Shown here: in pieces, positions 12,001 to 18,000 of the stretch
How the letters are laid out: each line of letters begins with the position of its first letter
How positions within the stretch are numbered: position 1 is the stretch's first letter
Assembly (NCBI RefSeq): GCF_056746865.1
Contig: NZ_CM163382.1
DNA length: 64,000 nt
Strand: one strand, 5' to 3'
Made by a program: the position numbers

Positions 12001-15000
12001 ATATTGTTATTACGATCGACCAGGTCATAGCGACTGCCCACAAGGCTACGTCGTGCTGCAACTTCAGCCGGATCGAGCTGTTTTTGCAGTGAATGGCCGG
12101 GTTGCAACGTCAACTCCATACCAATTCGGGTGTCGTTTTCTCCCTGTTTGCCCTGCCGTTGCTCGGCACTAAAGGAGATCAGAGGAACAGGGGTATAACT
12201 CAAACCTGCGGTAATCGCGTGAGGATCATTTTGACGCTCGTCTTTACCAAACAGCGCCACTTCATCGCCATAATATTGTTCATAGACCACCTTGCCGCCC
12301 AGCTGCGGCCAGGCCGGTAACCAGCCTTCGGCGCGAAGATCCCAACCGTTCGCCGGACGTGCTTCATAGTCATTGTCGAGTTCCGGTGCACTACGCCAGT
12401 TACTGAGGCGCAGATAACCGTTGCCGCTCAGTTTCAGGTAATCGCGCCAGTATTCAACGCCCATCCCGGTTCGGGTGTGATAGCGGGTCAGGTCATGATC
12501 GATAAACATATTGACGCCAGACATCCAGCTCGATGTGAAATAACGCCAGCCGATACCGTGGTTGGTTTGAGTGCGATTATCCGTACGGTGAAGTGTGTGC
12601 TGGCTGAAGACCAGGTTATCCGGCGTTTCGTACCAGGGATGGAGAAATTCAAATGACGAGCTTTTAAGGCTGAAATCTTCATCCACACCAAGAGATACCC
12701 GGGCAGTTCCCCAACGGCTGAGCCAGTCCGTTGCCTGCGCAGATGCAGAAGAAGCCACCCAGCCACGCGCCATACTCGCCGCCTGTTCGCTGTCCATATC
12801 GCGAGCTAAAAGTGTTCCGCTTTGCTGCGCCATTTCCGCGACCTGCATTTGCGGATCTTTGCCGTCGCGCTCCATCTGCATTGCTTTCAGGTTGCGCGCT
12901 TCAGGGCTGTTACTGTTAATGAGGGGCACATCTATTTCATCGCCCTGACGCACATTGTCAAAGCCCCGCGCAAAGGTACGGAACTGATTCAGGCGACGTA
13001 ATTCATCAACGGTGATACCAAAGCGTGCCGCGACCGTTGGTGGCGATTCCAACGCACCCAGGGTATATGGAATAGTTTTAACGTTCGGCAGGATCAGTGA
13101 CGCGGCAGTATCCGAGTGCGCAGGATTAATATGCGTAGGGGCAGCAGCCATAACAGGGAAAATAGTTTGTGTTATCAGGCAAATACCGGCGGTCAGACGA
13201 CGTAAACGATCCCCCAATCCACATATGGTGTTATCGCCCCGACGATCGCCATTCCCATGCGCTTTCCCTGCCATTTGTCATCCCTGTCGCTATGCGTTCA
13301 GATTAAATGACCTTTCTTTAACATGAGAGAAAATGATGATTCATGATTAGCAAATGATGAATACAGGCGGAATAATGGAAATAACAACAAGATAAGAACA
13401 ATGCCTGATCAATGGTTATCAGGGGAAGAACAGGAGAGCTTTCCCGCCAGAGCAGTAACCCCTCCTGTAAATACGTTACTTCATTTTCACCTTTGCGGTG
13501 ACCAATAACGCCGTCAGCAACATCAATGTGCCGGACAACATCAACGGCGAAGTCAGACCAATATTATCCAGCGCATAACCGCCGATTGCCGCGCCACAGG
13601 TATTAGCAAGCTGAATAACCGCCACCTGAATAGACCCGGCTTTTTCTGCCTGATCGGCCAGTGAGCGGGTGATCCACGTTGACCAGCCGACAGGAACCAA
13701 TGCAAAAGTTAGCCCCCAGATAATCGCCACGCCGGTAGCAACGATTTTATCGCTTCCCCACAACGTCAGCACCAACGCACTCACAGCCAGTATTAACGGC
13801 GCGCCTGCTAAGGCCAGTTTTACCGAACGTTTAAGAATGAACGACGAAAGCGACGTACCAATAAAGCTGGCGATACCAAAACTCAACAGCACCAGCGTTA
13901 AGCCATCCACGCCGAATCCCGCCAGGTTCATATACACCGGGCGAATATACGTGAAGAAAGCAAACTGCCCGGCGAAAGACATGAAGATGGCGAGCATCCC
14001 TGCCATCACACCCGGACGTTGTAATAAGCGGAAAGTATTTTGTTTCTGATGCGAGGGTTCGCCTGGCAGCGAAGGCAATGATTTGATAATCCAGAAAATA
14101 CACAACACGCCCATCGCCGCCGCCGCATTAAAGACATTGCGCCAACCGATAAGCTCGCCTAAAAAACTGCCCAACGGCGCAGCAATCACCAGCGCAATAG
14201 AAACCGCGCCGAAGATCACCGACAGCGCCTTCGGCACCGTACGCGGCGGTACCAGACGCATGGTCAGCGACGCCGACATCGCCCAGAACCCGCCCAGCGC
14301 CAGCCCCAGACAGGCACGACCGATTAAAAGCAAACTGAATGAGTTAGCAAAGGAAACCAGCAAGCAGGAGAGCGTCAGCAAAACGGCAAACAAAATAACA
14401 ACGTAGCGGCGGTCAGTGGCCTGAATTGTCTGGGTAATAAACAAACTGGCAAACATTGCCACAAAGGCGGTCACGGTCACCGATTGCCCGGCAACCCCTT
14501 CCGAAATGCCTAAATCCTGGGCCATTGGCGTCAACAAACTGACAGGCAAAAACTCAACGATAATCAGACAGGCGACGCAAAACGCCACCGAGAAAACGGC
14601 TGACCAGTTCGGTCGGGTGATGGCATCCGCGCCGCGGTTTTCGGCAATAAATTCACTCATGGTGTTACCCGTGGCATGTTTCAGGGGAAAAGCCGACCAC
14701 TTTAACATTGAAATGTGTGACGCATTTAACGTTTTTGCAACTTTTACGGTGTTGTGGGAAAGTTCGAGGCTGCTCGAAGAAATAAAAATCATAGGGCAAG
14801 GTGATATGTATTTTCGCGATTGTGTTGGGAACAAGGGATAAAGTATTGCACTTGGTGATATACTTTAATAACAGGACCTCAACGATATGCGCGTGTTTAA
14901 AACCAAATGGTTTGCAAGGGAAGCCAGGTCTCATGCAATAACAGATGAAGAGTTGTGCCGGGCCATTTTAGAAACGGAACAAGGTAAAGCTGATGCACTT

Positions 15001-18000
15001 GGCGGTGGCGTTTTTAAAAAGCGCCTTCACCAAAATCGTGAGCGTGCAATTATTCTGGCGAAAGGAGGAAGCAATTGGTTTTACACGTTTTTATATGCAA
15101 AACAGGATATGTCGAACATCAATAGTCAGGAACTGGCTGGGTTTCGTGAAATTGCAAAGCATTATGCCTTCCTGACGAAAGCCCAACTAACAGCAATGAT
15201 TAACACTAAAGAACTGACAGAGATCTGCTATGACTGCAAAAACTAAATTTAAAAGTCCTGCATTTGAGGCTATTCACAGCGCAGCGGCTGGATTGTCCAG
15301 CGTCGATGCTATTTCTGCCGAAACGATGCGTACTTTTGACAAAGCCTGCCTGACCAGCGTGCAAGACTTACAACCTGTTGAGATAAAAGCACTGCGGGAA
15401 AAATTAAAAGTGAGTCAGCCCGTCTTCGCTCACTATCTCAATACCAGCGTTTCAACTGTACAAAAATGGGAAAGTGGCGCTAAACGCCCCAATGGCATTT
15501 CATTAAAACTGCTCAGCATTGTGCAAAAACACGGGCTGGAGGTGCTGCTGTAAATAGAACGTAGATAATGCATTCACCTACTGTCAGTTCCAATACCGGA
15601 TGCGGCGTGAACGCCTTATCCACCCTACAGGTCAGGCGCGGTCTGTAGGCTGATAAGACGAAGCGGTTTTAATGCAGCCAGTGAACGCCCTCGGCAGGCT
15701 GAAAGAACGCGTTATAGCGCATCTGAAAAGCATTAATATCCTGCATTTCAGGTTCGGTTTCGCGCAGAAAACCCAGCGCCAGCCTGACCTGAGCATCAGT
15801 AATCGGCGCGGCAAGGCGGGCTTTTTGTAAAATCCGATGCCATTGCAGCAGATTCTGTTCGCTACCATCGACAATGACAATTTGCCAGATGAGCAACACC
15901 TGCGCGGCGTTTTGCAGGTGCGACTCATCCGGACGATGCAAATAACGTAAAAATTCGTCACCGGCTGACTTTCCCATTTGATCGACCATCGACTCCACGG
16001 GTACGACATCGATATTCAGCCGATCGCTGAGACGGCGAATCGCTTTTCTGGCCCCGGATGTCAGCACCCGAAAACCAACCACAAACACTACCGCCAGCGT
16101 GGCGAGCATTATCCAGATCATGAGTTCTCCTGCGTAATCAGAACTCATGATATCTGGAAACCCTCGCCAGTTACTAATCCACCAGAATAATCTTCAGTGC
16201 AAACAGAGCTGCGACCACCACCACACACAGGTTCAGATCGCGCCAGCGCCCGGTGCACACTTTCATGATGCAGTACGACATAAAGCCAAGTGCAATCCCT
16301 TCGGTAATCGAGAAAGTAAAGGGCATCATCACCGTGGTAATAAATGCGGGCACCGATTCGGTAAAATCATCCCAGTTAACGCGCGCCAGGCTCGAAGTCA
16401 TCAGCACGCCAACAAAGATTAACGCTCCGGCGGTTGCGTAAGGAGGAACCATCGCCACCAGCGGTGAGAAGAACATAACCAACAGGAACATAACGCCGAC
16501 CACAACCGCAGTCAGCCCCGTGCGACCACCGACTGCCACACCAGAAGTACTTTCAATATAGGCGGTAACAGACGAGGTGCCGATAAACGCGCCCGCCACC
16601 GAACTGACGCTATCAACATATAGCGCCTTATTCATATTGGGGAATTTACCGTTACTATCTATTAAGCCAGCTTTATCAGTTACACCAATTAATGTTCCTG
16701 ATGAATCAAATAGGTTGATCAGCATAAAGGAGAAAATGATACCGGCGAGTTCAAGTGTTAACGCGCCGCTCAAATCTACTTCACCAATGACGCCGCTAAT
16801 ATCAGGCGGAATGGAATAGATGCCGCTAAAATGAACATCACCGAAAAATAATCCACAGCAAGACGTCACCACAATAGAAACCAGCACCGCGGCATGAAAA
16901 TGACGTGATGACAACACGGTTATAATAAAAAACCCTAAAATACCTAACAACACGCCGTGAGAACTTAAATCGCCAATCATCACCAGGGTGTCTTTATTGG
17001 CGACAATAACGCCAGTGTTTTTTAATCCCATTAAGGCAATAAATAATCCGATTCCGCTGGTGATGCCAATACGTAAACTTAATGGAATGTTGGAGATCAT
17101 CCAGTAACGGATACGAAACAGCGTGAGCAAAAATAGCCCAATTGCGCCCCAGAATATCGCGCCCATCCCGGTCTGCCAAGAGATACCCATCGCCCCCACG
17201 ACCACGAACGCAAAGAAGGCGTTCAGCCCCATTGCCGGAGCCAGCGCCACGGGTAAGTTAGCAAATATCCCCATCGCAATACTGCCGATACCGGCAATCA
17301 AACAGGTGGTAACAAACACCACTTTCGGGTCCATTTGTGCCGCGCCGAGGATTTGCGGGTTCACAAAAACGATGTACACCATGGTTAAAAAAGTGGTCAT
17401 CCCCGCAATCAATTCTGTGCGGACGGTGGTCCCATGCTGAGGTAGTTTAAATAATCGCGAAAGCGTCCCTGATTCATTACTCACGTAATCGGTATTGTCA
17501 TTATTCATTTTTTTGTCCATTGGAGGAGATTTAATCCCTTGCTTTTGTAAAACAAATGACAACAACGGTTCAGTGATAATTATCACATTTCAATTGCACA
17601 TTAATGGATATTCTTTAATAATCTCGCGACGTTTCTTTATGATAAATAATAATCAAATTGATAAAATCAAAATGAGAAAAATATGAATAATTCTATTAAC
17701 CATAAATTTCATCACATTAGCCGGGCGGAATACCAGGAATTGTTAGCCGTTTCCCGTGGCGACGCTGTTGCCGATTATATTATTGATAATGTCTCTATTC
17801 TCGACCTGATCAATGGCGGAGAAATTTCCGGCCCAATTGTGATTAAAGGACGTTACATTGCTGGTGTTGGCGCAGAATACACTGATGCTCCGGCTTTGCA
17901 GCGGATTGATGCCCGCGGCGCAACGGCGGTGCCAGGGTTTATTGATGCTCACCTGCATATTGAATCCAGCATGATGACGCCGGTCACCTTTGAAACCGCT

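Follow-up and report, generated by a model that had tools for sequence, protein, structure and literature searches.

A toxin-antitoxin gene pair between nepI and yicN

The window examined in this work, a stretch of 64,000 nucleotides from contig NZ_CM163382.1 of NCBI RefSeq assembly GCF_056746865.1, carries between nepI and yicN two small genes arranged as a type II toxin-antitoxin (TA) module. The flanking genes were identified by correspondence with the annotation of E. coli 118UI, which is 100% identical to the window across the module and its flanks. The upstream gene encodes a predicted toxin and the downstream gene a predicted antitoxin with a helix-turn-helix (HTH) domain; they lie on the same strand and overlap by 17 nt (Table 1). 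Since the antitoxin gene starts 17 nt inside the 3' end of the toxin gene, translation of the two could be coupled. An earlier note on this stretch had placed a toxin-first, HigB-2/HigA-2-like pair at 14887-15553, and both open reading frames (ORFs) were found exactly there, overlapping and between the two genes named. The PGAP annotation starts the toxin at a GTG (14893; 117 aa). However, because the family alignment (MRVFKTKWF...) and the Pfam match begin at model position 1, the ATG at 14887, which was also the start chosen in the earlier note, appears to be the better one. An AGGA string resembling a Shine-Dalgarno sequence precedes this ATG, and the string ACAGGA is kept 5' of the toxin gene in related loci.

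In keeping with a type II TA module, the two genes are small, run in the same direction and overlap, and they stay together in other genomes: at 80 of 80 related loci in other bacteria, toxin and antitoxin genes were adjacent and in the same order. Both genes are under purifying selection. Comparisons with Escherichia sp. E1V33 and E. coli E69 gave ratios of nonsynonymous to synonymous substitution rates (dN/dS) of 0.09-0.14 (toxin) and 0.06-0.09 (antitoxin). Considering the match of the toxin to PF06296, the matches of the antitoxin to HTH and HigA-2 models, the adjacency in 80 of 80 loci and dN/dS values of 0.06-0.14, the pairing of the two ORFs is far beyond chance. The toxin-first TA module proposed in the earlier note is supported, and it is of type II.

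The toxin is a full-length member of the PF06296 family

Along its entire length, the 119-aa protein matched Pfam family PF06296 ("RelE", previously DUF1044), residues 1-113 aligning with model positions 1-120 at 142 bits (E=1e-41). Vibrio cholerae HigB-2 (VcHigB2), for which we used a sequence identical at 110 of 110 residues to PDB 5ja9_C, proved to be a peripheral member of the same family (34 bits, E=3e-8; positions 8-96 of the 120 in the model). A RelE/ParE superfamily survey published in 2025 also places it in PF06296 (PMC11980606). An AlphaFold2 model of the toxin, built on 30 homologues (predicted local distance difference test score, pLDDT, 87), was assigned to the RelE-type fold, in which an N-terminal strand and two helices accompany an antiparallel sheet that bears the active site. 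When the model was compared with the PDB using Foldseek, the eight best matches were all VcHigB2 (probability 0.99-1.00, TM-score 0.45-0.62, ~20% identity), followed by Mtb HigB1, the Cami1 RelE domain, YoeB and YafQ.

Alignments through bridging family members placed the HigB2 residues K49, R51, R64, Y82 and K84 on K44, R46, R53, Y70 and K72 of the toxin. These five residues matter for HigB2 (PMC5416850) and are also listed in PMC10098735. Among PF06296-type relatives, K44 and R53 were invariant, while R46 and K72 were invariant or nearly so. The link between the toxin and HigB2 was made through Pfam, the fold search and bridging sequences, and not by direct sequence search. The toxin and its close relatives also carry a C-terminal extension, comprising a helix (98-106) and a strand (110-115) with a conserved E112-I113-C114, which is common to ToxP of Coxiella and most PF06296 members and is absent from VcHigB2. 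No toxin model was matched in NCBIfam or PADLOC, and only unannotated families were matched in PHROGs.

The antitoxin resembles HigA-2 in its HTH domain

The 107-aa protein matched Pfam HTH_3 (E=1e-7) and, over the C-terminal half of the model, MqsA (E=1e-5), and its best sequence match in the PDB was HigA-2 (E=8e-10 over residues 46-102). Its XRE-type HTH, at approximately residues 46-102, corresponds to the C-terminal dimerization and DNA-binding domain of HigA-2-type antitoxins. When modelled, this domain superposed on the C-terminal domain of VcHigA2 (5j9i), to which it is 40% identical, with a TM-score of 0.81-0.85 and a root-mean-square deviation of 0.9-1.4 A. The family alignment showed no variation in NTSVSTVQKWESGAKRP, a segment that covers the recognition helix and the following turn. 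The N-terminal 45 residues are strongly conserved (KSPAFEAIHSAAxGL...ETMRxFDxxCL, with S9, A14, I15, H16, F36 and D37 invariant) and can be aligned with AntitoxP of Coxiella. In an AlphaFold2 model of a toxin-linker-antitoxin fusion, which says little on the interface, antitoxin residues 10-24 and 30-40 were helical (pLDDT >90).

Two other family assignments were considered for the antitoxin and rejected. Matches to the MqsA family (TIGR03830/PF15731) involved the C-terminal HTH half only (profile positions 47-119, with 41 bits where 61.8 are required; positions 53-123 only of the Pfam model), and the antitoxin sequence contains no MqsA-type zinc-binding CxxC motifs. The match to the NadS family (NF041265) was likewise confined to the HTH region (41.3 bits, cut-off 60). 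PADLOC returned generic HTH models only, such as RmrA.

Antitoxins are expected to be acidic and to evolve fast. Here, the reverse was seen on both counts: the computed isoelectric point of the antitoxin is 9.6 (9.2 for the toxin), and in Enterobacterales identities are higher for the antitoxin (77-86%) than for the toxin (64-72%), with the same tendency in more distant loci.

Together, the profile searches recovered both a toxin family and an HTH family for the pair, and the HigB-2/HigA-2 resemblance drawn in the earlier note is sustained, in that the toxin shares its Pfam family with VcHigB-2 and the closest solved structures for the two proteins are HigB2 and HigA2.

A conserved palindrome marks the candidate operator

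An inverted repeat lies upstream of the toxin gene and overlaps a probable extended -10 element (Table 1). We looked for similar repeats within 120 nt upstream of the toxin start at 79 related loci, ranging from Enterobacterales to Acetobacteraceae, Rhizobiales and Betaproteobacteria, and found a family-wide palindrome with the consensus TAGCAC-N3-GTGCTA at a median of 40 nt 5' of the toxin start; the repeat in the window is its Escherichia form. The strict consensus was present at 53 of the 79 loci, the core GCAC-N3-GTGC at 63 and the shorter CAC-N3-GTG at 76; at background level, the core is met once in ~24 kb. In most Enterobacterales loci, a TGnTATAGT sequence overlaps the right half-site. 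A scan for consensus promoters, which needs a -35, and a scan for terminators returned nothing, and the promoter proposed here rests on the extended -10 and its conservation. A single inverted repeat reaching over the -10 is also the form of the operator footprinted for VcHigA2 (PMC11006873). By analogy with characterized homologues, the antitoxin would bind at 14839-14867.

Distribution in E. coli and vertical descent next to nepI

The module was present in 1716 of 5426 complete E. coli genomes (32%), O157:H7 among them, and was always single-copy and chromosomal. In all but two carriers (1714/1716) it was contiguous with nepI-yicN-adeQ. A further 3668 complete genomes had the 210-bp nepI-yicN spacer of K-12 MG1655, which contains neither the toxin nor the antitoxin gene. 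These counts agree with the earlier note, which had taken the module to be strain-variable, with no known counterpart at this position in K-12. The exact toxin and antitoxin proteins each occur on at least 1000 public contigs, under the names "type II toxin-antitoxin system RelE/ParE family toxin," "addiction module toxin RelE" and "helix-turn-helix domain-containing protein." The pair is thus already known, being annotated in RefSeq as a type II TA system in the 1716 complete genomes.

Linkage to nepI extends beyond E. coli. It was found in Salmonella, five species of Klebsiella, Citrobacter amalonaticus, another Enterobacteriaceae genome and two divergent Escherichia lineages. Within this nepI-syntenic group, toxin identities were 64-77% and the synonymous substitution rate (dS) was saturated, which fits long vertical descent of the module next to nepI.

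A minority of E. coli genomes have a truncated or frameshifted toxin gene (79-95 aa products) alongside an intact antitoxin gene (example in Table 1). Loss of the toxin with retention of the antitoxin is the usual decay route of chromosomal TA modules. One apparent decayed copy was set aside: the match in E. coli HS-02 (L003 3001-3625; 76.7% identity) contains A/C/G homopolymer runs and is probably an assembly or base-calling artefact. It was the only low-identity match in E. coli and was not used as evidence of decay.

A relic of the toxin gene in the K-12 spacer

Alignment of the K-12 region with the window by blastn showed that 839 bp of the window correspond to 41 bp in K-12 MG1655, and the UTI89 spacer has the same replacement (Table 1). 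Within the missing segment, the best match to these 41 bp is at 14971-14989, where 17 of 19 positions are identical and both mismatches are at synonymous third positions; extended, the alignment covers toxin codons ~23-35 with 28 of 40 positions identical. The match score was reached by 0 of 2000 shuffles. The 41-bp sequence of UTI89, the flanks of which are more divergent, is identical to that of K-12. Because the same toxin relic is present in K-12 and UTI89, the empty site is a deletion scar, and the shared nepI linkage in Salmonella, Citrobacter and Klebsiella, together with saturated dS, indicates that the module is ancestral and the K-12 arrangement derived. About two thirds of E. coli genomes, K-12 included, have lost the module by a deletion that left the 41-bp relic.

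These findings contradict one part of the earlier note, namely that the module had been inserted between nepI and yicN. Recent acquisition of a mobile addiction module into a K-12-like empty site would be in keeping with its absence from K-12, its presence in only 32% of complete genomes and the occurrence of relatives on plasmids and islands. However, no integrase, repeats or mobile-element genes flank the E. coli module, which in this species is always chromosomal, single-copy and at the nepI-yicN locus. Considering also the relic (0/2000 shuffles) and the nepI linkage in three other genera with saturated dS, we regard such an insertion as extremely improbable.

A REP-type (repetitive extragenic palindromic) element just 3' of the antitoxin gene is common to K-12 and marks the right boundary of the polymorphism. 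It gave the only Rfam match, which was to naRNA4 and below threshold (33.5 bits, gathering score 59.5).

Relatives on islands and plasmids

A second lineage of relatives was found in Enterobacter, Pectobacterium, Erwinia, Edwardsiella, Pluralibacter and Serratia, with ~83-99% aa identity of the TA proteins across families (92-99% among the first five genera). In this lineage, the TA genes adjoin a conserved gene for a 292-aa protein, with a weak match to XerC-like integrases, and another for a 380-aa unknown protein. At three loci, they lie directly upstream of a SIR2-HerA anti-phage pair. The context looks like that of a horizontally moving island with variable defense cargo. Plasmid records with more distant relatives numbered 184, and many of these plasmids came from rhizobia or Coxiella; apparent plasmid and phage carriage of the module is inflated, since some records are evidently chromosomes or chromosomal contigs (plasmid records NZ_CP141089.1 [H61/H74, 4.9 Mb] and CP125156.1 [H62, 5.4 Mb] and phage record AFYI01000003.1 [H73, 515 kb]).

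Comparison with characterized systems

The counterpart in Salmonella enterica is STM3777-STM3778, which occupies the same position next to nepI. Its toxin is 69% identical (82/119) and its antitoxin 81% identical (87/107) to those of the window. Protein lengths and the 17-nt overlap do not differ between the two, and the palindrome lies at the same upstream distance. On the far side, Salmonella has sugar-metabolism genes where the window has yicN. Based on the locus-tag offset and on an antitoxin mass of 11,736 Da (computed for serovar Infantis) against the reported 11,754 Da, STM3777-STM3778 is probably the system described as relBE3ST (SL3743-SL3744 of strain SL1344). Expression of RelE3ST reduced cultivability, and RelB3ST was detected by mass spectrometry in LB-grown cells (Lobato-Marquez et al., 2015; PMC4366850). 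STM3777-STM3778 was also listed as a RelE-superfamily TA system in a 2013 paper that has been retracted.

ToxP/AntitoxP of Coxiella burnetii (CBUA0028/CBUA0027, plasmid QpH1) is likewise toxin-first. ToxP is 32% identical to the window toxin over its full length, C-terminal extension included, and AntitoxP is 55% identical to the window antitoxin over 104 aa, N-terminal segment included. ToxP has proved toxic, and translation in a cell-free system was inhibited by it, whereas AntitoxP neutralizes it and binds both ToxP and the promoter (PMC10098735). The two systems differ in that ToxP/AntitoxP is plasmid-borne, with a role in stabilization, while the window module is chromosomal, and in that no GCAC-N3-GTGC motif lies upstream of the Coxiella genes.

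V. cholerae HigB-2/HigA-2 (PDB 5JAA, 5JA9, 8A0X) provides the closest solved folds for both proteins, and HigB-2, like the window toxin, falls in PF06296. VcHigB2 and the window toxin share all five active-site residues at an overall identity of only ~20%. HigA-2 consists of an N-terminal neutralizing segment and a C-terminal HTH; the window antitoxin has such an HTH, and its conserved N-terminal segment may be the neutralizing part. The operators are both single inverted repeats over the -10, but they differ in sequence (TGTACGC-N5-GCGTACA for VcHigA2 vs. TAGCAC-N3-GTGCTA for the window family), and all four base-contacting residues of VcHigA2 (R68, E71, N72 and R77) are replaced in the window antitoxin (S75, Q78, K79 and A84).

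The HigB/HigA pair of K-12 (YgjN/YgjM) and SehA/SehB of Salmonella resemble the window module in being toxin-first, in belonging to the RelE superfamily and in having an antitoxin with a C-terminal HTH, but represent a different family, with toxins of PF09907 and antitoxins of ~140 aa that have a dimerization domain at the N terminus: the only Pfam match of the window toxin was PF06296, with none to PF09907. The window pair was ruled out as a counterpart of SehAB, as SehB has 142 aa and is 46% identical to K-12 HigA, while the window antitoxin has 107 aa. In a pangenome comparison, an accessory E. coli pair was labelled "Toxin HigB-2 / Antitoxin HigA-2" (PMC10304320); it is probably the pair described here.

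Proposed mechanism and alternative explanations

We favor the reading, at a probability of about 0.8, that the pair is a canonical HigBA-2/ToxP-type chromosomal type II TA operon, the counterpart of STM3777-STM3778. The analysis establishes the gene structure, family and fold, shows that the catalytic residues and the palindrome are conserved and that selection is purifying, and traces the history of the locus; toxicity, RNA cleavage, neutralization and DNA binding would be expected by analogy with characterized relatives. The two genes would probably be transcribed from the extended -10 as one bicistronic mRNA. The toxin would most likely enter the ribosomal A site and cleave translating mRNA by means of K44, R46, R53, Y70 and K72, like HigB-2 and RelE, and the N-terminal segment of the antitoxin would most likely neutralize it. 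By the same analogy, an antitoxin dimer most likely represses the operon by placing its C-terminal HTH domains on the palindrome at 14839-14867 and occluding the -10.

Several observations weigh against this reading. Searched by sequence, the toxin had no match in the PDB with either phmmer or a 30-sequence profile, and hhalign against HigB2 gave a probability of 4.7% in the wrong register; the wrong register, which pairwise alignment shared, was due to a spurious KGGS/RGGS match. Many family members have Phe where HigB2 has Tyr82. The Lys/Gly-rich beta2-beta3 loop (GKGKxGG) has been shortened by a 6-residue deletion in the toxin and all close relatives, so that the window toxin reads HQNRE where HigB2 has SKGKGKRGGS and ToxP has ILGKGKRGGL. 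VcHigB2, with its long Lys-rich loop and no C-terminal helix or strand, is the opposite of the window toxin on both features, and ToxP also keeps the GKGKRGG loop. The loop is needed for full activity of HigB2 and has been proposed to bind the ribosome, and its replacement by alanine impaired the toxin (PMC5416850). For this reason, ribosome binding by the window toxin may differ, or its activity may be lower; the loop is, however, a feature of VcHigB2 and ToxP and not a defining trait of PF06296. The half-sites in Escherichia (TTGCAC/GTGATA) are degenerate versions of the family consensus, although the antitoxin has kept the recognition-helix segment without change. RelB3ST did not neutralize RelE3ST in the assay used (PMC4366850), and no experimental study of the E. 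coli pair was found in the literature searched. The missing loop, the Salmonella neutralization failure and the degenerate Escherichia operator are the main uncertainties, and leave room for a non-nucleolytic or mainly regulatory variant.

Loop loss, an antitoxin more conserved than its toxin and the reported failure of the Salmonella antitoxin to neutralize point to the possibility that the nepI-linked modules of Enterobacteriaceae form a HigB-2 subfamily of altered function. In this reading, which we consider unlikely, the pair may work in a non-canonical way, for example by binding the ribosome differently, by depending on a third factor or by acting mainly as a regulator. A toxin that retains the RelE fold without being a ribosome-dependent mRNase, and that inhibits growth through another target, has a precedent in SehA, a HigB-like toxin that has no nuclease activity and inhibits RNase III (PMC12817084), and the lost loop and the Tyr/Phe variability at the Tyr82-equivalent position could be taken in the same sense. 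However, SehAB is of the K-12 HigBA type and hence of a different family, the (near-)invariance of K44, R46, R53 and K72 in PF06296-type relatives fits a retained catalytic site and the closer homologue ToxP inhibits cell-free translation, which makes a non-nucleolytic toxin quite unlikely.

Another alternative is that the module has been domesticated, with the HTH protein controlling other genes such as the divergent nepI and the "toxin" serving mainly as a co-regulator. The position next to nepI has long been fixed across four genera, the promoter is divergent and 226 bp from the nepI start, and the greater conservation of the antitoxin, together with the presence of RelB3ST in LB-grown Salmonella and its failure to neutralize, could be explained in this way. 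Yet the toxin is under strong purifying selection with its catalytic residues kept, the palindrome lies over the module's own -10 and plasmids and integrase-linked islands carry the same pair away from any nepI, and we judge mainly regulatory function to be very unlikely. Anti-phage defense by abortive infection, in place of a role in stress response or stabilization, could operate through the same molecular mechanism. In its favor are the near-identical relatives (92-99%) on the island with the XerC-like integrase, the SIR2-HerA genes downstream at three loci and the discussion of the RelE/ParE superfamily as a source of defense toxins (PMC11980606); since the toxin had no PADLOC match, the antitoxin matched only generic HTH models and the E. 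coli copy lies outside any defense island, this role is nonetheless unlikely for the module of the window. A canonical HigBA-2/ToxP-type operon thus remains the reading that we prefer.

Wider neighborhood

Next to nepI, the window carries the gene for an inverse autotransporter adhesin of 3418 aa, in which many Big-type repeats follow in near-identical form; it is annotated as EaeX/Air in 118UI. Upstream are eilA, which encodes a HilA-family regulator, and a type III needle-tip gene of the IpaD/SipD family, a stretch that looks like an ETT2-related island. O157:H7 and K-12 have yicS in place of the adhesin region. Between adeD and uhpT, the window contains an ORF where 118UI has an IS200C transposase; K-12 has the small RNA gene uhpU.

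Table 1. Coordinates of the TA module, its regulatory region, neighboring genes and selected related loci. Positions are those of the window unless another locus is named.
Feature	Coordinates	Strand	Description
Toxin ORF	14887-15246	+	ATG start, 119 aa; RelE/ParE superfamily, Pfam PF06296 (HigB-2/ToxP family)
Antitoxin ORF	15230-15553	+	ATG start, 107 aa; C-terminal XRE HTH
Candidate operator	14839-14867		13+3+13 nt inverted repeat TAAAGTATTGCAC-TTG-GTGATATACTTTA; ends 20 nt before toxin ATG
Probable extended -10, TGaTATACT	14856-14864	+	Read from sequence; overlaps right operator half-site; poor -35
Shine-Dalgarno-like AGGA	14873-14876	+	10 nt 5' of toxin ATG; read from sequence
Presence/absence segment	14755-15593		839 bp here, 41 bp in K-12 MG1655 and UTI89
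Toxin part surviving as relic	14953-14991	+	Codons ~23-35, LCRAILETEQGKA
nepI	13476-14660	-	
yicN	15669-16121	-	
REP-type element	15560-15625	-	
Inverse autotransporter adhesin gene	3018-13274	-	
eilA	1269-2966	+	
Needle-tip gene	59-1066	+	
ORF between adeD and uhpT	19561-20070	-	
Truncated/frameshifted toxin, example	L085 1852-2159		E. coli WWCOL-236; proteins P0070, P0103-P0105, P0110, P0113-P0116
Candidate island-borne TA loci	L009 826-3000, 4833-7858		Also L007, L008, L013, L024, L025, L039, others

Biological significance

As a discovery the pair is modest, since it is annotated in RefSeq, its family has been characterized in Vibrio and Coxiella and its Salmonella counterpart has been assayed; the additions of the present work are the K-12 deletion scar and the conserved operator motif only. 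The TAGCAC-N3-GTGCTA motif is directly testable, and K-12, in its derived state, is a natural null host for the module. With its short loop, the toxin could also reveal whether ribosome targeting in the PF06296 family requires the Lys-rich loop. Finally, the pair has stayed at one chromosomal site since before the split of Escherichia, Salmonella, Citrobacter and Klebsiella; even so, two thirds of E. coli can do without it.

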